NCBI GenBank assembly: GCA_963781585.1
Contig: CAWAGQ010000006.1
Span: forward strand, 384,001-448,000
Length of the DNA: 64,000 nt
Direction: 5' to 3'
Origin: an uncultured Gemmatimonadaceae bacterium
GTDB lineage: Bacteria; Gemmatimonadota; Gemmatimonadetes; Gemmatimonadales; Gemmatimonadaceae
In this document: positions 25,423-35,990 of the stretch, piece after piece
Position numbering within the stretch: position 1 is the stretch's first letter
Layout: the number at the start of each line of letters is the position of its first letter
Position numbers and translations under genes: made by a program
Notes under the pieces: model-generated
The model's input: the letters and a program-made list of their open reading frames with translations, nothing else
Database searches by the model: none
Told to the model about the DNA's origin: nothing

Positions 25423-25740
25423 GACAGGATCTCCGGAAGCCCGGACGGCGGCCGGCGGCCCACGACGCGGCCCGACGAACCAGCAGCGGGTAAGGTGGAT
25501 GCGAACGAACGTTTAGTCGACGCCCGGCGTCGGGCCCCGAAAGTGGTGCAGCCAGACCACTGTGGCAGCGCCAGGATAAACGGGAGATTAACATATGGCT
25601 TGAGGCGTACTCGACCGCAAGCTGCCGACCGCGGCCTTAAGCGAGGTGGCGTGGCCGTCTCGACTCGGCGGAATGCGGCGACGCCCGTAGCATGCGTTGG
25701 GCAGGAGTTCGCCGATCGAGTCGCGGCGCCGCAGCAGTAT

Positions 25741-26292
25741 GCCAACGAAACCGGTCGGTGATCGGCGTGGTGAGAAACGCGGGAATGAGTGGAATCGCGC
25801 CGTTCCACACGCGCGCTGCGACTGCGGAAACCCGCTGAACCACGTCGGCCGTGAACTGAGACCTGTGGCACGCCATCGAGCGTGCAGACGACTGGAGATC
25901 TGCCGGGGTGAACGGCACCTGCACCGTGGCATACCGCGCGTCCGGCACAAGGAGGGGCGGTTCGCCACGCTGCGGGTTCATCGCGCGGATTGCTTCAGCG
26001 GGCAGATACAGCGCGCCTCTTCCGTTCGCGCACGGACGAGGTCCTGAGTGGGCGGCGCTGTGTCCCCCCGCGCAGCGGCGAAGCCGGTGCCTTGTCCGCC
26101 ATCGGTCGCAATCAGCAGATGGACCTGCACGCCTTCGCGCGCGTAACGAGACAGGATAGGTGCGGCGGGATCCTCGTCGTCAGCATGGGCCAGCACCGCC
26201 ACGAGTGTTCTGGGTCCAGTCGATTGCGAAAGGGACACGGCGGGGATGAAGAGCAACGGCGCGGCGATGACGACTGAAGTCAACGGGTACAT
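25741..26292 (-). pseudogene. PIG-L/LmbE deacetylase with an internal deletion
   Basis: Signal peptide, VLAHADDE, ATDG, R.EEARC, joined out of frame near 26010 to the C-terminal part MACHRSQF. The central HxDH region is missing. Confidence 0.78.
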
Positions 26293-26324
26293 GGTGCGCT
26301 CCTGGGGCCGCAAAGAACGGCGTG

Positions 26325-27991: not shown

Positions 27992-28438
27992 ATGAACCCG
28001 GACCAAGAAGACCTGACCGTCGGCCTGGAGGATGGCGGCGGAATCCTGTGCATCCGCAACCCGGATGTTCACCGGGGATGGAACGGCATCCGCTATCGCA
28101 CCGGCATGTCGGCGAAGAACGTCGGCGCGCGGAGCCTGTCCATGAATGTCGCGACCGTGCCTCCCGGGGCGGTGGCGTACGCCCACCTGCACGACGGCTT
28201 TGAGGTGATGCTCTTCATCCTCGAAGGACGGGTGCGCCACGAGTACGGCGATGGGCTCAGGGAATCCATGGAGAATGGTCCCGGCGACTTCATCTTCATA
28301 CGCCCGGGAGTTCCCCACGAGGTGCTGAACCTGAGCGACGAGGAGCCCGTTGTGGCGGTGGTGGCACGCTCCGATGCGTCGGAGTGGTCGAACATCATCG
28401 ACTACCCGTCACCGCGAAGGCCACCGGCCGGAGGCTGA
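27992..28438 (+). CDS. Cupin-domain protein
   Basis: AHLHDGFE...ILEG, GPGDFIFIRPGVPH. Confidence 0.88.
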   Translation: MNPDQEDLTVGLEDGGGILCIRNPDVHRGWNGIRYRTGMSAKNVGARSLSMNVATVPPGAVAYAHLHDGFEVMLFILEGRVRHEYGDGLRESMENGPGDFIFIRPGVPHEVLNLSDEEPVVAVVARSDASEWSNIIDYPSPRRPPAGG

Positions 28439-30382
28439 TCACGCGCCCGCGGTACCAGACCGTGCTCCGCGCTCGCTTCCCGCAGCATCTCCGCCACGTG
28501 CCTGTGGCCCTTCATTTCTGCCCAGGCCAGGGGGACGGACCACCGGGCCCCCGACGCGACGGGGTCGGCGCCGCGCTCGAGCAATAGCTCGACCATCGCG
28601 CTCTGTCCGCGTCGGGCGGCCACGCCGAGGGGAGTGGAACGGTACTCGTCGTCAATGCCATCGATATCCGCGCCATGCGCGAGCAGCAGTTTCGCCTTGG
28701 CGAGCTCCCCCTCGGCGGCCATGTGATGGAGCAGCGTGAACCGGTGCCAGTTCATGTGGTTGGGGTCCATGCCGTGCTCCAGCAGGAAGGCGGCGGTCGC
28801 CTCGTGCTTGAAGTAGTAGTACGGCGCCCATTTCGACACCGGCGGCACCCGGGCGCCGAGTCGAAGGAGCATCGCGATGACGTCGTGCCGCCCCTCACGC
28901 GCGGGACCGGCGAGGATGCCGTCCCCCCAGCCCGCCTCGTCGTCATGGACCCAGTGCAGGTTGGCGCGCAGCAGTCGCTCCGCCTCGTCCAGCTTTCCCG
29001 CCTGCGCGAGTTGCGCGACCTGATCGCGGCCGGACGCCTCCCGCTGTCGTCCGCCGTGTCGGCGGAGGAGCTCCGTGAGCTCGGAGTCCTTTCTTTCCGC
29101 CTGCGACATGGGTGTGCCGCACGAGTCGACGTCTGCGTTCGGATCGGCGCCGTGCGCCAGCAGCAGGCGGGCGATTTCGCGCTCACGATCGTTCACGGCG
29201 ATCCAGAGCGACAGCCCGCGCGGCGCGCCCTCCTCGGGCAGGTTCGGATCCGCGCCGTGCTCGAGCAGCAATCGCGTCATCGCGAGATCGCGCCGGCGCA
29301 CGGCCGCCGAGAGCACGCGATGATGGCAGGTGTCCTCGAAGTCGGCGACCGAGCGGTCGCGGGCCAGCGCGTCGCGCACGAACTGCTCGTCGCCGCGGAG
29401 TGCGGCGATGAAGATCGTGTAACGCGCCCCCCGTGACAGAAGCAACGTCGCGATCTCCTCGCGCGGACCCAGCATGACCTGGAAGAACCAGTTGGGCATC
29501 AGGGCGCAGTGCACCGGTCGATACCCGTCCCCACGGACGGCGTCGACGTTCGCGCCCGCGGCGAGCAGCGCGCGAACGACCTGCAGGTGCCCGCCCTTGG
29601 CGGCGTGATGAAGGGCGGTGTCGCCCGTTTCGTTGCTGGCTCGAGCGAGCGCGGGGTCGCGGGCGAGCTCGGTCCCGACCCCGGCGAGGTCGCCCCGTCG
29701 CGCCGCCTCGATGATCGCGTGCGTCGCCCGAGGCGACGGCGAACCGGCGTGTCAGGCGCCGGCGCAGGACGTCGGCCAGCTCCTCATGACCGCGATCCTC
29801 GGCGAAGGTCAGCAGCGATTCCTGGAAGGGATAGCTGCGGTATGCCGGATCGGCACCGTGGTCCAGGAGAAACGTGGCGACGTCGCGCTGTCCTTCACGC
29901 GCCGCGAAGTGGATTGGCGGCGTGTAGTTGTACTCGACGGTCGCGAGCGCGGGATGGCGCGTCACGAGTTCCTTCACCGTGGTGATGTCACCCTCGCGCG
30001 CCGCGGCGAACATGGCGAAGACATCGTCCGTTGGCAGGTCCGTTCCATCGGCGAGCGTCCAACGCCGACCGGTCGAGAGCTCCACCGGACGAATGAGCGG
30101 CCGCAGAACGAACCCGCCGCCGGTGACGGTCTCCACATGGTGCACCAGCTTCGGCCAACTCGGGAAACCGAACTCGCGCGCGATCGCGAGTTGCGCGTCG
30201 GCGAGGGTGATCCGTGCGCCGCGACCGATGGCCGCCACACGCGCGCCCGCGTCTCCGCCGCGCGCGTCGTGAAGCAGGTCCTTGGCTTGCTTGCGGAGCT
30301 GCTCGAGCGACGGGCGCTCGGGGAGGGGCCGCGGCGCAGCGGGCGAGCCGCCATCGCCACCGCGTGAGGGGGAGGGGGACAT
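28402..30382 (-). CDS. Ankyrin-repeat protein with a small N-terminal helical domain; single frameshift near 29726
   Basis: N-terminal LPERPSLEQLRKQAKDLL...LADAQLAIAREFGFPSWPKL. Ankyrin repeats run to RFAVASG, then continue after one extra base as THAIIEAARRGD...GDTALHHAAKGGH and join ORF 28402..29514. Confidence 0.85.
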
Positions 30383-30501
30383 GAGATCTCCTTTCGATGC
30401 GCCCGTGTCCGCAGGTCGGGCTGAAAGAAGATCGGGATCCGACTGCCGTGTTTCGTCAGGTGGGCTCTGCCCTGCCCGCGGACGGGGTGCGCCCTGCGCG
30501 C
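30383..30501 (-). ncRNA. Putative structured cis-regulatory 5' leader of the ankyrin gene
   Basis: Long-range stem GUCCGCGGG (30483-30475) / CCUGCGGAC (30415-30407) encloses hairpins GGG-CAGAG-CCC and GUCGG-AUC-CCGAU and closes just before the RBS AAAGGAG. Confidence 0.55.
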
Positions 30502-30507
30502 TTGCCC

Positions 30508-30537
30508 ATCCTAAGACGGATGGCCGCTCGCCGTCAA
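30508..30537 (-). promoter_or_regulatory. Sigma70-like promoter of the ankyrin gene
   Basis: TTGACG (30537-30532), 18-nt spacer, TAGGAT (30513-30508). Confidence 0.6.
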
Positions 30538-30638
30538 GCGAGGGCCCATCTGGTCATTGCGGGGATACCGTCTGGCTGGAGTCGTCAAACTGATTGACCC
30601 CGAGTCCCGGTCCTGGTCTGGACGGCGGAGAGAGGTCC

Positions 30639-30668
30639 GCCTAACGCCATTCCGATCTGCTGCGGGGA
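30639..30668 (-). repeat. attC-like right half-site
   Basis: Minus strand CCCCGCAGCAGATCGGAATGGC-GTTAGGC downstream of the DUF4019 gene. No matching RYYYAAC left end found. Confidence 0.45.
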
Positions 30669-30763
30669 GCCCTCATGCGACTCTCGCCGCAGTCGCGCGG
30701 CGCCCGCCGCGCGCACTGAAGAGCGCCGACTACGGCACCAGCTGCCTGGGGCGCCGGTCCCTG

Positions 30764-31117
30764 TCACCGAATGAAATAACCAGAGACGCGCCAGGTGCCG
30801 TCAACGTCGCGCATCGGTGTGACCGTCTCGACGGCGGAGCGTTTGTGTTCAAACTGCGTGTCGAACTGGAAGACAACGTACTCCCCGTCAGGAGCGCCCG
30901 GGAGCTCGGTCGCTGGGCGCGCTTCCCTGAGCGTGCGCACCACCAGTGCTCCGAGGGGTTCGCGTGCGGCGGCGAGGGAACGGGCCCACTGGGTCTCCGG
31001 GACGGCCCGCCGAAAGAGCGAGGCGGCAGCCTCCCACGTGCCGGCCGCATCGGCGGCGTCGGCCCGGGCGAGCCAGTCACGCGCGGCCTGCTCGGCCTCA
31101 GGATCGTATTCAGCCAT
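30764..31117 (-). CDS. DUF4019-family protein
   Basis: AARDWLARAD, REPLG, LPGAPDGEYVVFQFDTQF, ETVTPM, WRVSGYFIR. Confidence 0.88.
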   Translation of the reverse strand: MAEYDPEAEQAARDWLARADAADAAGTWEAAASLFRRAVPETQWARSLAAAREPLGALVVRTLREARPATELPGAPDGEYVVFQFDTQFEHKRSAVETVTPMRDVDGTWRVSGYFIR

Positions 31118-31327
31118 TGCTGTCTCCGCTCTTCACATGTGAAGCGGGGGGCCCGCGCCCGCCACCTCACCTCACTACGGCAGATCCCTTCTCGTGGCCA
31201 TTGCCTTCGCGATCAGCGCGCCGTGGACACGCACCTCGACATCGGTGAGCGCGTCAGCCACGATGCCTTCCTTCGACGGCGGTGGATCATGTCCGGAGTG
31301 GAATCGCGCGTCGGGCCCGTCAGCCGG

Positions 31328-33166
31328 TTACTGGCTGAACGAAACCTGGAGGTTGTTGCCGACAATGCTGAAGCTGGGCAGGAATCCATTGACGCTGTTG
31401 CCCGTGAATTGAGCCGCCGAGAAGTTCGAGAGGTTGGTCGCCGTCAGAATGGTATACGGTGTGTCGAGCGCAAAACCGGCACCGCCCTTGAATGAGAAGG
31501 CTGCGGGACCCGCCGTCATGGCCAGGGTTCCCGAGACCACGAGACAGGTGGTGGCGGTGCCAAGGGTGGTCTCGATGACACCTTGCGCGAGTTCAAGGGC
31601 GCCGATCGTCAGGCTGGCTTGCTGATAATAGCTGATGTCCAGCGTACCGTTGCCGTAGAGTCCAACGGTCGCCGCGCCGCCGGAGGACCCCTGGTAGAAC
31701 GCGATTCTCCCGCCGGAACCGCCGTTGTAGCCACCCATGGCGAGCAACAGTGCATTACCTGCCGTCGTTGGTCCGCTGAATGAGGTCAGGCCTCCGTAGG
31801 GGCCCTGGGTGAGGGCGCCGAGGTTCACGAACGTACCGCTGGCGGCCGTGGGAATGTTGCTCCCGCTGGGGACCGTGGGAACGTCGCTCCCGCTTGCGGC
31901 CGGGGGAACCTTGGTCCCACTGCCAGCGGCGCTGTCGTCGGTGTACACGACAAACTCGGTGAGGCCTCCGGGAGCGCCGGCGCCCGTGCCGGGGAAGTTC
32001 CAGAAGGTGCCGTTGCCAGCGTTCGGAAAGAAGTTGCCCTTCGTTTGCGGGACGCTGATCGAGAAGACCGTGCGTCCGGCGCAGGAGTCCTTTCCGGAGA
32101 CGGCGCTGCCATAGTTGATGAACGTGCCGTTGGCCGCTGTGGGCGAGCCGTACCTGGCGGTGAAATAGGTATGACCGCCGCCTTGTTCACTCGCCTGGGC
32201 GCCATAGTTATAGAAGAAACCGCTGCCGGCCGACGATCCCGCTGTGGGGTCCATATAAGGCTTGTTGTTGTTGAAGCTGGTGACTCCGCCATTGCCCCCG
32301 GCGGCGGTGGCGGCATAGTTGTGGAAGTTGCCGTTCGCCGCCGTGGCAGTGCCGTCGAACGCCACGTCGCCGCCGTTCGCGTGGGGGACCGTCCCGCCCA
32401 GGTTGTGGAACACGCCGTTGCCCGCGCTCGCGGTGACGTAAAACTGCGTGTTGCCGCCATCGCAACCGTCCAGCGTCCCGCCGGCGTTTGTGAACACGGC
32501 ATTGGCCGCAGTCGCGGCATCGCGGAACACCGCGTTGCCGAACGTGTCACCCTTGTTCGCGGTGCTCGTGGAGCCGTAGACGGCGAACCGTGCGGTTCCG
32601 CCCGATGAAGAGTCGCAGAAGCTCACCTCGCCGCCCACCGTACTGTCGTTCTTCGGCGGCGCGCCCTCGCCGGTCGTAATGGTGAATGAGGCGGAGCCGG
32701 CGGTGGACGTGTCGTAGAAACCGATGACGCCCCCGCCAATGGCCGCGGGCGTGGCGGGACCAGAGACGTAGGAGACGCCGGGCCCTCCCGCGCTCGCCGA
32801 GTTCCTGAACTTCAGCAGCACCTGCGCATAGTCCTGGGCGGCAGACGCGACGACGAAACGCTGCGGGTTGGGGGAGTCGGTCGACACTCCGGCACCCGTG
32901 ATCGTGAGCGCCGGTACGGCGGCGTCGGGAGTGGTGAACGTGAACGTGTAGGGCGGTGCGTCGGCGGTAAACGCGATGCTCTCGACCGTGGCGTTACTGC
33001 TCGACGAAAAGACGATTCCCGTCCGGGAAGACGCGCCAAAGGTGGCGGTACTCGTGGGCACGCTGGCGGGGTTCCAGTTCGTCGCCGTGTTCCATTCGCC
33101 GGATGCTGGTTGCGTTCCCCAGGTGGAGTCTCCTGCGGCGGCGGACACTGATGGGCGATTGCTCAT
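31328..33166 (-). CDS. Gly/Ala/Ser/Thr-rich beta-helix-like repeat protein (autotransporter passenger-like)
   Basis: GAGGTGGAG before ATG 33166. W.TATNW start and about 10 repeats of F...(S/T)A(G/A)N(G/A).F.N.G. No signal peptide or beta-barrel seen. Confidence 0.75.
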   Translation of the reverse strand: MSNRPSVSAAAGDSTWGTQPASGEWNTATNWNPASVPTSTATFGASSRTGIVFSSSSNATVESIAFTADAPPYTFTFTTPDAAVPALTITGAGVSTDSPNPQRFVVASAAQDYAQVLLKFRNSASAGGPGVSYVSGPATPAAIGGGVIGFYDTSTAGSASFTITTGEGAPPKNDSTVGGEVSFCDSSSGGTARFAVYGSTSTANKGDTFGNAVFRDAATAANAVFTNAGGTLDGCDGGNTQFYVTASAGNGVFHNLGGTVPHANGGDVAFDGTATAANGNFHNYAATAAGGNGGVTSFNNNKPYMDPTAGSSAGSGFFYNYGAQASEQGGGHTYFTARYGSPTAANGTFINYGSAVSGKDSCAGRTVFSISVPQTKGNFFPNAGNGTFWNFPGTGAGAPGGLTEFVVYTDDSAAGSGTKVPPAASGSDVPTVPSGSNIPTAASGTFVNLGALTQGPYGGLTSFSGPTTAGNALLLAMGGYNGGSGGRIAFYQGSSGGAATVGLYGNGTLDISYYQQASLTIGALELAQGVIETTLGTATTCLVVSGTLAMTAGPAAFSFKGGAGFALDTPYTILTATNLSNFSAAQFTGNSVNGFLPSFSIVGNNLQVSFSQ

Positions 33167-33228
33167 GTTCTCCACCTCAGGCGATAAGGAGTTGAAAGGG
33201 AAAACTGCGGATCGCAACAAGCAGCGCC

Positions 33229-34404
33229 TCACCGCAGCAGGTCGAGCGCCGCCTCCTGCATCCGCCGCTGCGCTTCGGTTGCCGGGGTCGCGGTGTTGGT
33301 CGTGTTGAATACCGCGATCACCGAGAGCGTGCTCACCGGATCGAAGTAGTAGAACGACCGGAAGCCGGCCTGGCTTCCGGTATGGCCCAGAATGCGGTGG
33401 CCGTCGCGGTCGAGCACGAAGAACGCGAGCCCCATCCACTGGTGCGGTGCGGCCTCGTAGCTCTGCGACATCGGCTTCCCGGGTCGCCACATCTCCTCGA
33501 GACTCGACCGCGAGAGCACCACGTCGTACCGGGCCCGGGACATCCCTGGCAGGACGGCCCCGGTCAGGAAGGCCGTATACTTCACCAGATCGTTCACCGG
33601 TGCGTTCCAGGCGCCGTTAGGCGATGTGATCCCCGGATCGAAGTCGGCGCCGTTGTCCACCACCTGCGGCCGGCCCGCCGAATCCTTCCGGACGTAGTAG
33701 TTGTGTGACCGCTGGCCGGCCAGAAAATACGGCGTGCCGCGAAAATAGCTGCGGCTGAGGTCGAGCGGGGCAAAGATGTTCTTCTGGACGTACGCATCCC
33801 ACGGGTCGCCGGTGATCTGCTCGATGACGCGTGCCAGATAGATGAAGGCAGGGTTCGAATAGCTGTACCGGGATCCCGGCGGGAAGAGCAGTTCCTGGTA
33901 CGGCATCATGGCCACGAGCTGGTTCCAGGTCGTGGGCTCGAACGGTTCCCACGGCTTGCCATTGCCCCACGGCCAGGTGGGATTCTGGAATCCCGCGGTG
34001 TGCGACAGCAGCATGCGGATGGTGATGCTGTCGATCATGTTGTAGGGGTCGTGAATCTGCCGCAGCTCCGGCACCCAGCGCACGATCCGGTCGTCGAGCG
34101 AGAGCTTCCCGCGATCGCGAAGCTGCATGATCGAGATCGCAGTGAGCGACTTGGTGATCGAACCCCAGTGGAAGATCGTCTGGGAGTCGACGGCCGCGTG
34201 TGTCGCGCGGTCCGCGTCGCCGGTGTCGTAGCGGCCGATGACACGGCCGTTTTTCATGAGGACCACGCTGGCGCCCACCACCCTGTCGCTGTCGACGTAG
34301 GCCTGGAAGGTGTGCGTGAACGCGGCCCAGGTCGGCGGGGCCTGCGCGATGCCGATGGCGGGTGCGAGCGCGGCGAGCGCGGCGGCGCGATGGAGGGAGG
34401 TCAT
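33229..34404 (-). CDS. Secreted serine hydrolase, beta-lactamase family
   Basis: Signal peptide, GSITKS, LLSHTAG, YSYSN, GHTG. Confidence 0.93.
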   Translation of the reverse strand: MTSLHRAAALAALAPAIGIAQAPPTWAAFTHTFQAYVDSDRVVGASVVLMKNGRVIGRYDTGDADRATHAAVDSQTIFHWGSITKSLTAISIMQLRDRGKLSLDDRIVRWVPELRQIHDPYNMIDSITIRMLLSHTAGFQNPTWPWGNGKPWEPFEPTTWNQLVAMMPYQELLFPPGSRYSYSNPAFIYLARVIEQITGDPWDAYVQKNIFAPLDLSRSYFRGTPYFLAGQRSHNYYVRKDSAGRPQVVDNGADFDPGITSPNGAWNAPVNDLVKYTAFLTGAVLPGMSRARYDVVLSRSSLEEMWRPGKPMSQSYEAAPHQWMGLAFFVLDRDGHRILGHTGSQAGFRSFYYFDPVSTLSVIAVFNTTNTATPATEAQRRMQEAALDLLR

Positions 34405-34431
34405 GGGAACCGACGGCGGGGGAGCACGCGG

Positions 34432-35990
34432 TCAGGAAACCACAGCGTGTTGCGTGGCCCAGAGCGCGGCGGCGGCCCGGGTCGAAACGCCGATTTTCGT
34501 ATAGATGTGCTGGATGTGATGATCGGCCGTCTTGGCGAGATGTTGAGCCGGTCGCCAATCTGCCGGGTCGTGAGTCCCCGTGCCGCGAGCTGCAGTACGT
34601 CGACCTCGCGACGGGAGAGCCCGCCCGGATTTTTCGGGCGTGGGCCGGTGCGCGCTTTCGGCTCGCCGTGGCCCGCGGACACGAGCACCGCGCGGCTCGC
34701 CCGCGGCTCGATCACGCCTGACGACGCAAGCCGGCGCAGTTCGGCCGCGGCCTGCTCGGCGGAAAACGGCGGCCGGTCGGCTCGTTCGGTGGTCATCCCC
34801 ACATAGATCTCGGTCGCGGCAAGGACACCCGCACCGGGATCGATCGCCGCGGCAAGCACGCGCTTGTGGTAGCCGGATCCATCGCTCTTTTCGTGGTGCG
34901 CGCTGGCGACCGGGTTCAGGGCGGCCAGTGCCGGCGAACGCCTCAGCATCTGCTCGGTCAGCATCGGGTGCAGCTCGACGCGGTCGAATTCCGCACGGGT
35001 GAGCGCCGCTGGCTTGTCCCAGATGGAGTTCGGCACGCCGGTGGTGCCGAAGTCGTGCAGGAGCGCAGCCCTGCGGAGCGAGGCGACGGCGTCGTCGCTG
35101 AAGCCGAGCAGCCGGGCCGCGTCGGCGGCGAGCTGCGCGCAGCGACGGCTGTGTCCCACCATGTACGGCGACTTGAGGTCGATGAAGTCCGCCGCCACCG
35201 CGAGCGCGTCGTCGAGCTGAGCGCCACTCAAGATGCGATGTGGTTTCGGCTCGAGGTCGAGGACGGCATCCCACGGCTCGGTCTTCTCGAGCCGGTCGAA
35301 CCAGCTGGAGCCATGCGCGAGAAACAGGTCCGCGAGGACCGGGTCGTACGTGCGGTCCCGGCGGTCGCGGACGGCGTCGAGCGCCCGGGCCGGCGAGAAG
35401 ATCCGGCCAATCGACTCCATGTCGTGGCTCAAGTGGACGATCCGCATCGGCAACGGGATCGCGTCACCGCGCGCATGGGCAGGATAGCCATTGCCGTTCC
35501 AGCGCTCGAAGGTGTAGCGCAGCGCCTCGCGAACGTCCGGGCCGAAGTCGAGGCGTTGCACCAGCATGTCGGCCACTTCGCATCCCGACGCGAAGTTGTG
35601 CACCGCCCACTCGCGCGCGGTCTGTTGAATCATCTGCACGATCTGGTCGCGCTGATCCTGGGGATGGCCGGCCGTCGCGTAGGCAATCACGTCGCGCATG
35701 ACCTCGGCCGGATTCGCGGCGTCGTGCACCAGCGTCTGGGCGCGAATCGCGATCTCGTCGCCGAATACCGTGGCTACCTCGTGGGCGTGACCGGTGCAAC
35801 CGATGTACCGGAGGAGCGCCACCCAGTAGGTGGTCTCGCGCACTCTCCGTTCGAACCCCGCGGCCTCGCACATCCACGTCGCGAGCAGGCACGATCTGAG
35901 CTGCGATTCCAGCGGCTGACCGAACGCGTTGTCCTGCGCCAGGGCCAGGGTGGCCACGAATTCACCGAGACGAAGCGGCGGCGTGGAAAT
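34432..35990 (-). CDS. HD-GYP domain protein with C-terminal LuxR HTH; frameshift near 34535
   Basis: ERWNGNGYP, AALLHDFG, HHEKSDGSGY, GLSRREVDVLQLAARG. The HTH ends in another frame (KTADHHIQHIYTKIGVSTRAAAALWA, stop at 34432). Start uncertain: GTG 35957 or ATT 35990. Confidence 0.85.

Follow-up and report, generated by a model that had tools for sequence, protein, structure and literature searches.

Covariation points to a pseudoknotted leader RNA paired with an N-terminal protein domain, a candidate module for translational autoregulation

Introduction

On the minus strand of a 64,000-nucleotide stretch from an uncultured Gemmatimonadaceae bacterium (GenBank assembly GCA_963781585.1, contig CAWAGQ010000006.1, positions 384,001 to 448,000), a leader RNA element lies 5′ of an ankyrin-repeat gene. 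What might such a leader be doing ahead of a protein of this kind, and to what might it respond? A sequence-only reading of this stretch, which we call the window and whose coordinates are used throughout, had proposed a promoter, a leader folding into several stems, and a small N-terminal domain on the ankyrin protein. It had also supposed similar leaders ahead of other genes with this domain, suggested a search of Rfam, and offered an autoregulatory module or a riboswitch as explanations. We consider here the structure of the leader, the company it keeps across genomes, and the explanations that fit both.

Results

Promoter, transcript, and ankyrin gene

A promoter scan of positions 29500-33000 returned a single sigma70-like site, confirming the promoter that had been claimed. 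Its -35 hexamer (30537-30532, minus strand) is separated by an 18-nt spacer from a -10 hexamer (30513-30508), and it scores 9 of 12 matches, while shuffled sequences average 0.3. Promoter and leader lie 7 nt apart, placing the presumed transcription start at or just before 30501. The leader, 119 nt long (30501-30383, minus strand), abuts the ATG at 30382 and represents class I of the superfamily proposed below; it scores 96.1 bits with our covariance model R1, whose seed includes the window sequence. Promoter-like hexamer pairs were found within 60 nt of the first helix, P1, in 66 of 148 leaders versus 3 of 148 control windows further upstream, and in 64 of those 66 the -10 element ends 6 to 11 nt before P1. 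By this spacing, transcription probably begins with the first base of the RNA (+1), which would then make up the entire 5′ untranslated region. Rfam returned no match to the window at gathering thresholds, and none to positions 30330-30600 even at an E value of ≤10.

The ankyrin-repeat gene (28402-30382, minus strand) is split by a frameshift near 29725, a feature that the sequence-only reading left unmentioned, with ankyrin Pfam matches in both frames. Two homologues (P0003 and P0059) align with 30331-29726 in one frame and from 29724 onward in the next. Named homologues belong to Gemmatimonadota, including Gemmatimonas aurantiaca; intact ones have about 650 amino acids, and 104 of the 120 listed reach at least 600. 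Since these 104 are full length, we set aside a programmed frameshift near 29725. The split may reflect sequencing error or recent decay. A gene for an HD-domain protein with a LuxR-like tail (34401-35957 and 34432-35274, minus strand) also seems, by eye, to be frame-split near its end, and this second frameshift less than 5 kb away hints at assembly indel errors.

Three further observations concern the surroundings of the gene. A DUF4019 gene (30764-31117) lies between the leader and a minus-strand gene at 31328-33490, two genes upstream of the leader, which encodes a 720-amino-acid, repetitive, Gly/Ala/Thr-rich protein with no Pfam match at an E value of ≤1. On the other side, at 25637-26313 (minus strand), two abutting open reading frames resemble by eye the start and end of one deacetylase, presumably of the PIG-L type, with the middle missing.

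Conserved fold of the leader

The upstream regions of homologs retain the structure of the leader, as judged by covariation and strand-swap tests. On this comparative evidence the leader is a conserved RNA with six helices backed by covariation, a weaker 2-bp helix, and two pseudoknots. Helices were first read by eye in an initial 30 leaders and tested afterwards. Alignment A1 was built on sequence only; alignment A3, comprising the window and 77 other loci, was fitted to P1, P3, P4, and P5 and to neither pseudoknot. The strand-swap set held 68 leaders, dereplicated at 80% from 101; not included were a duplicate of the window leader, two rows cut short by a contig end, two others that carried long insertions, and two further duplicates. 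In A1, the two pseudoknots and P3 together are 96.4% paired with 53 both-side changes, a result equaled by none of 500 shuffles, while slid controls reach 39 to 46%.

At the 5′ end, P1 (30501-30489) pairs 30501-30498 with 30492-30489 (swap z, -11.2), and two of its pairs change on both sides in A3. Its loop, 30496-30493, forms pseudoknot 1 (PK1) with 30460-30457, directly after P3 (swap z, -9.1). PK1 was the top signal of a 1083-window grid and is 82.5% paired in A3; four of its five pairs show both-side changes in A1 and A3 alike, and the fifth, outermost pair is poorly kept. P2 (30486-30476) is the weaker 2-bp helix, pairing 30486-30485 with 30477-30476 and presenting a six-base kissing word. 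In 157 leaders it appears as C-G/C-G in 136, with a compensated outer pair in 4, as U-G in 3, and mismatched or unparsed in 14; it is 90% paired in A1, which by itself is weak support, as 4 of 500 shuffles score as high. In A1 as in A3, the P3 hairpin (30472-30462) is paired throughout (100%) and has two covarying pairs (swap z, -10.6). The bases joining these helices are near-invariant in sequence logos, and an A-rich linker adjoins the H-type pseudoknot.

A linker at 30456-30434, which shows no conservation in A1 and no covariation, leads to the 3′ half. Here P4, an 11-bp helix between anti-Shine-Dalgarno and Shine-Dalgarno (SD) strands, pairs 30433-30423 with 30395-30385 (swap z, -13.9), so that conserved structure covers the SD of the first gene. 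P4 belongs to the minimum-energy fold and comes to -14.6 kcal/mol with its own strands versus -10.3 kcal/mol with swapped strands in the 68 leaders. Stacked within it, P5 (30421-30401; 30421-30417 with 30405-30401; swap z, -7.0) carries an 11-nt loop that bears the kissing partner. The loop around this partner word is short, mostly 3 to 6 nt before and 0 to 3 nt after it. Pseudoknot 2 (PK2) is the resulting loop-loop contact, 30483-30478 with 30412-30407 (swap z, -9.1); in A3, which was not fitted to it, 99.6% of cells are paired and four of six pairs show both-side changes.

The fold had been read differently from the window alone. Its 9-bp closing stem (30483-30475 with 30415-30407) is present in the window, but only the 6-bp core, which is PK2, is conserved in the family. 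The CCC/GGG and GCG/CGC extensions of this stem likewise exist in the window sequence but not as a family feature (swap z, +0.8 in 68 leaders). Alternative pairings had been proposed for GUCGG (30443-30439); both partners occur in the window, but the word lies in the unconserved linker and its swap z values are -1.3 with CCGAU and -0.7 with CCGAC. As family features, then, the multi-stem fold and the GUCGG switch are wrong by the 68-leader swap test, and two pseudoknots with an SD-burying hairpin take their place. Nor does the structure end beside the ribosome-binding site; it covers it through P4. The earlier fold lies only about 2 kcal/mol or less from the best fold of the window sequence. 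The stability of a single sequence is itself barely beyond chance (z, -1.91, with 6 of 200 shuffles as good; z, -0.37 for the plus strand), and the case for an RNA rests on covariation rather than on stability.

Association of the leader with an N-terminal domain

The protein behind the leader begins as had been described, with a small helical domain followed by ankyrin repeats recognized by Pfam. The domain spans about 70 amino acids (30122-30331, minus strand), and an AlphaFold2 model gives it four helices (pLDDT, 86). A profile of the domain recovers 10,359 clusters at 50% identity (E ≤ 0.001), with the domain nearly always at the extreme N-terminus; its Lys, Gln, Arg, and Trp positions are 90 to 100% conserved, and its net charge has a median of +3 (range, -3 to +10). 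Pfam returned no match to the window domain, which stays below the 23.7-bit threshold of Glyoxalase_8 (PF20066). Six of 30 relatives match PF20066 weakly (best E, 6e-4), and a profile comparison by hhalign of class I with PF20066-type domains gives 96.6% (E, 7e-10; 54 columns), pointing to a distant relative of the N-terminal part of that family. No sequence match to the domain was found in the PDB and no Foldseek match at an E value of ≤0.001, while a search of the ESM Atlas matched only unnamed clusters. The best VIA-align matches are weak for the class I domain (Z, 4.3; rmsd, 4.6; 63 aligned) and likewise for the class II domain, there to the DUF1244 structure 3fyb (Z, 5.2; rmsd, 2.5; 51 aligned); together, these structure searches indicate neither a known nor a new fold.

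What follows the domain varies. Cargo sequences form 26 clusters, and of 20 representatives scanned, 13 are ankyrin proteins; the other seven comprise an LRR protein, a Clp_N protein, a PNP_UDP_1 protein, a glyoxalase with TIGR03067, a protein with a weak match to DUF6263, and two that fall in no family. R1 found the leader at the loci of all seven. Ankyrin families, the LRR, Clp_N, PNP_UDP_1, and glyoxalase cargoes, and a hydrolase-like domain of no assigned family thus swap while the leader stays. Gene neighborhoods share nothing beyond close kin and indicate no pathway.

Some proteins carry more than one copy of the domain. LRR and Clp_N/ClpX-zinc-finger proteins with two or three tandem copies occur at L032, L035, L043, and L065 and in P0124, P0150, and P0177, and tandem copies may imply that the domain works as a dimer. 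In P0138 and P0192, two copies are fused to a FliM-like domain.

The sequence-only reading had held that similar leaders precede genes with this domain; this is borne out, and the coupling holds in both directions. From domain to RNA, the leader is visible by eye at all 30 loci from which R1 was built, the window's own included, and R1 finds it at 77 of 80 loci of named genomes (the best 80 of at least 515 confirmed loci). The three missed loci start 44 to 74 nt from a contig end and have a visible 3′ half. Across 141 whole genomes, R1 gave 66 matches in 38 genomes, with the RNA just upstream of 54 of 55 domain matches; the exception has an internally deleted leader. From RNA to domain, 10 of the 12 matches outside those 54 fit the domain profile (one contig-cut, one degraded), and the remaining two are 5′-half remnants without the domain. 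In the genome of the window, the top two leader matches (E, 9e-6 and 5e-9, with 0.67 for the third) fall at the two further domain copies. A protein-blind pattern scan returned at least 120 metagenome loci and one viral locus. Among the pattern matches listed, the domain lies within 60 codons in 114 of 117 assessable cases; three lack it, and four more were too short to assess. This pattern fixes the commonest kissing words and therefore samples typical leaders, and since kin are not independent, none of these coupling counts is a significance test. Taken together, they strongly support a conserved cis-regulatory leader that is paired with an N-terminal domain.

Individual loci depart from the common arrangement in several ways. 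The two 5′ halves without a domain gene are L150 (G085:C2:19475-19551) and L152 (G096:C48:15720-15833), and one of them runs into another reading frame, which we take to be PilC-like. The leader of L319 (G054:C15, about 29800-29840) has its middle deleted. At L085 (999-1138 and 1186-5124), tandem domain genes stand under one leader, the second without a leader of its own. The two further leader-domain genes in the genome of the window, G000:C6:456626-456755 (minus strand) and G000:C15:87347-87489 (plus strand), have open frames of about 420 to 430 amino acids.

Of 201 genomes sampled from the phylum, 54 carry the domain (one of these, G182, is counted in this tally alone). Carriers among the loci listed include members of Gemmatimonadota, Acidobacteriota, Actinomycetota (Kribbella and others), Planctomycetota, Verrucomicrobiota, Chloroflexota, and Pseudomonadota, and cultured carriers include Kribbella type strains and, through a homologue of the protein, Gemmatimonas aurantiaca. 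A phage element is unsupported, with a single pattern match in viral contigs.

Sister classes of leader and domain

Because six of the 30 domains weakly matched PF20066, we examined the regions upstream of PF20066 genes, which occurred in 17 and 19 of 201 genomes in two overlapping samples of Pseudomonadota. A junction motif is common to 31 of 32 loci with an N-terminal PF20066 match, in leaders of the same layout and different sequence, which we call class II; we excluded a near-duplicate, two loci of other classes, and three whose match fell in the C-terminal part. Across 30 aligned class II leaders, pairing in the kissing helix and P2 reaches 98.1%, and 16 changes affect both sides. Swap z values for the 27 parsed leaders are -3.6 for P1, -7.2 for PK1, -6.6 for PK2, -9.0 for P3, -6.5 for P4, and -9.8 for P5, with a control at +0.3. 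Cargoes in this class include glyoxalase, Lon substrate-binding, and weak DUF3471 domains. At one locus (L294:1211-1503), another structured stretch, long and GC-rich, lies between the class II leader and the annotated start.

An Rfam search of 17 sister loci gave a single match, to the COG3860 RNA at 60.9 bits, and five loci among 151 genomes lie above the threshold of that family (class III). In all five, the word between two hairpins is perfectly complemented 96 to 117 nt downstream, inside a hairpin that covers the SD. The word occurs in four variants, none of which finds its complement outside its own locus or a locus that has the same word. Class III genes encode DUF2087 behind the domain, with a weak PF20066 match at the start in three of the four scanned. 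Profile comparison by hhalign gives 96.4% for the class III domain against class II, and directly against class I only 14% (E, 0.002); since this direct match is weak and class II stands between, class I is linked to COG3860 by a chain. From these sequences, the orphan COG3860 RNA of Rfam appears to correspond to the 5′ half of the leader in a third version.

Leaders of like layout also precede nine genes of the PRK05973 "DNA helicase" type (class IV; one assignment confirmed, at 382 bits) and four more distant loci (class V), the latter read largely by eye. For both classes the case is made by complementarity more than by covariation; the class IV kissing word is invariant, so that its complementarity comes without covariation (own equals swapped). 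Neither class matched Rfam, where a search of 20 sister-class loci yielded one tRNA only. At L310 and L322 to L329, proteins of the PRK05973 "DNA helicase" family open with such a domain, and their genes share a highly conserved leader that is absent from Rfam; the helicase annotation may hide a regulator. R1 crosses between classes once, weakly, at 1 of 20 PF20066-type loci (E, 0.017). From the shared layout and the homology of the domains, we infer that the classes have a common ancestor.

Discussion

What might the leader respond to? The genes have only their first 55 to 75 codons in common, and changes in the RNA go with changes in the domain, which makes the domain the simplest ligand. 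Of the two explanations first offered, we therefore favor autoregulation over a riboswitch: the RNA tracks the domain whatever the remainder of the protein may be, and the two come in matched sister versions. Specifically, we lean with modest confidence toward translational self-repression, in which the N-terminal domain would bind its own leader. In favor are the two-way coupling, independence from cargo, the sister versions, the conserved Lys, Gln, Arg, and Trp positions, and the charge of +3. Against it, much of the coupling is already accounted for by linkage alone, since gene fusions would carry leader and first codons along as one piece, and the net charge is modest. The second gene of L085 lacks a leader, three of the 117 listed leaders lack the domain, the domain match between class I and COG3860 is weak, and the window copy is frameshifted.

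An orphan riboswitch is an unlikely alternative. Its 5′ pseudoknot would bind a metabolite or ion, the loop-loop contact would relay binding to the SD hairpin, and the domain would merely occur in regulated genes. Near-invariant joining bases, an A-rich linker, and a covarying core with SD burial as expression platform suit such a device. Some cargoes look damage- or stress-related (Clp_N, ClpX zinc finger, Lon substrate-binding, glyoxalase), and Rfam files the COG3860 cousin as cis-regulatory. However, the cargoes share no pathway, their common part is the first 70 codons, and the joining bases differ by class in step with the type of domain.

How might autoregulation work? The program used for folding cannot score pseudoknots, and the following energies refer to nested folds. 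The best fold closes the SD in 108 of 150 leaders, opening it costs a median of 7.5 kcal/mol, and the 3′ hairpin alone has a median of -23.8 kcal/mol. The best SD-open fold contains the six-base helix in 89 of 150 leaders and keeps P5 in only 11, and the six-base helix also forms in 112 of 150 transcripts truncated directly behind the partner word. Among 1083 window pairs, there was no covarying anti-anti-SD helix; six pairs had z below -3, all of them PK1 or PK2, and four had z above 3. In nested folds, the PK2 helix alone competes with P5 and P4. Covariation thus gives no support for a classical two-state switch. At this cost of opening the SD, the free RNA looks off by default, which would suit activation no less than repression. 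The shortness of the loop that holds the partner word is equally compatible with a docked, closed form in which every helix is present. The nested folds suggest that the open state arises while the RNA is being transcribed and that the product favors the closed one.

Under self-repression, the module would consist of a promoter, a folded leader, and a small predicted RNA-binding domain fused at the N-terminus of varied cargo. The 5′ pseudoknot (P1, PK1, P2, and P3) would present the six-base word, and the 3′ hairpin (P4 and P5) would bury the SD while its loop bears the complementary word. On a growing transcript, the six-base contact would form first, before the 3′ strand of P5 and the SD exist, and could keep the hairpin open so that ribosomes load. 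As product accumulates, its domain would bind the leader, favor the closed hairpin, and stop further synthesis, as at ribosomal-protein leaders. The protein would either clamp the docked closed form or block the opening contact, a choice that sequence cannot make. By binding a partner of its own, the cargo, be it a repeat, protease-adaptor, enzyme, or ATPase domain, may adjust this control.

The stability of the 3′ hairpin and the frequency of closed best folds could equally be read with the domain as an activator. A hairpin this stable would shut the free leader until the protein, possibly as a nascent chain, stabilizes its open form; the outcome would be positive feedback and on/off expression. 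The near-constant position of the domain at the very N-terminus would suit a nascent chain. However, such a loop needs a leak to start, and self-activation through a protein's own leader is rarer than self-repression; we regard this reading as improbable.

Still less probable is an arrangement in the style of type III toxin-antitoxin systems, with the RNA as structural partner or inhibitor of the protein and SD burial keeping protein below RNA. The strict pairing of a pseudoknotted RNA with one domain, stand-alone genes, several copies per genome, and a weak HEPN/RES match at the N-terminus of one distant relative would accord with it. Against this, no terminator or repeat array lies between RNA and gene, class I cargoes show no nuclease or toxin domain, and viral contigs gave the one pattern match only. 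The least credible reading is that the leader senses something else (temperature, an RNA chaperone, or a trans factor) or is a fixed translation brake coupled to the domain by linkage: the strong anti-SD helix and the heritability of adjacent promoter, leader, and first codons as a block would allow it, but two conserved pseudoknots are more than a brake or thermometer requires, and linkage does not explain why, in the genomes searched, neither part occurs alone in working order.

We also put forward a broader proposal, held tentatively and at less than even confidence. The PF20066-like domain would be an unrecognized RNA-binding domain, forming with its knotted leader a portable feedback module that exists in mutually specific versions (class I, PF20066, COG3860, and PRK05973 types, and others) on thousands of unrelated sensor and adaptor proteins. 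If so, these proteins would serve as one-component regulators whose target is mRNA and not DNA, perhaps through a nascent domain that works on its own message, and the orphan COG3860 motif would be explained. A large uncharacterized domain family would gain a testable function, and an orphan Rfam motif would gain a full structure and a candidate ligand. Mutually specific classes would also offer a natural set of non-interfering RNA-protein switches.

Comparison with known systems

Self-regulating leaders are already known as a kind; this RNA family is absent from Rfam. In a full-text literature search, outside which most subscription journals lie, we found no account of the leader or of its pairing with the domain. 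Within it, searches for ankyrin genes together with riboswitch candidates, RNA motifs, or CMfinder returned nothing describing the leader, searches for glyoxalase superfamily proteins with RNA terms likewise gave no such description, and no paper was found on PF20066. The COG3860 RNA is said to come from Weinberg et al. 2017, in whose main text the term does not appear. The main texts of PMC11109978 and PMC5737381 make no mention of it, and their supplements, outside the search, may describe a COG3860 pseudoknot or a related motif; the main text and one supplement of PMC8632094 make no mention either. The accessible part of PMC1564403 treats COG3860 as a protein domain only, and the accessible parts of the DUF2087 literature are unrelated to the leader.

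In autogenous ribosomal-protein operators, a pseudoknotted 5′ leader over the ribosome-binding site is bound by the product of the gene behind it. The window leader resembles such an operator in being a pseudoknotted leader over the ribosome-binding site that co-occurs with the gene of its presumed, still putative, binder. The accessible part of PMC8470358 describes one example, the rpsO (S15) pseudoknot, as the autogenous translational operator of a ribosomal-protein gene. Unlike rpsO, the leader and its protein have no known second, rRNA-like target, and the presumed binder is a portable domain on unrelated cargoes.

Among riboswitches, SAM-II, the preQ1 classes, and ZTP use SD-occluding pseudoknots. 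The leader shares with them an H-type pseudoknot and an A-rich linker, and its hairpin loop pairs across a variable linker as in ZTP. It differs in having two pseudoknots plus a separate anti-SD helix, no metabolic gene context, and no Rfam match.

The nearest relatives are the Rfam and Pfam families to which the sister classes lead. The COG3860 RNA (RF02940) is a cis-regulatory orphan of 54 positions. It shares with the window leader the plan of the 5′ half, namely a hairpin, a joining word, a second hairpin, an A-rich linker, and a complement to the first loop (in COG3860 as read by eye); in class I, P1, P3, and PK1 of this layout covary, and the first loop pairs after the second hairpin. 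The two differ in sequence, the window leader having no score against a threshold of 42.5 bits and no match at an E value of ≤10, and in arrangement, P3 following P2 in the window and lying inside P2 in COG3860. RF02940 sits 5′ of COG3860/DUF2087 genes, whereas the window gene is an ankyrin gene without a DUF2087 match; its model stops before the 3′ hairpin, and the comparison draws on five loci. On the protein side, the N-terminal 55 or so residues of PF20066 (Glyoxalase_8) show the same AlphaFold2 helix pattern and the K..AK.L and AR..G...W motifs, while the window domain has an extra helix and the leaders are unlike in sequence. By family thresholds the leader falls outside COG3860 and the domain outside PF20066, yet by layout and profile they are kin to both.
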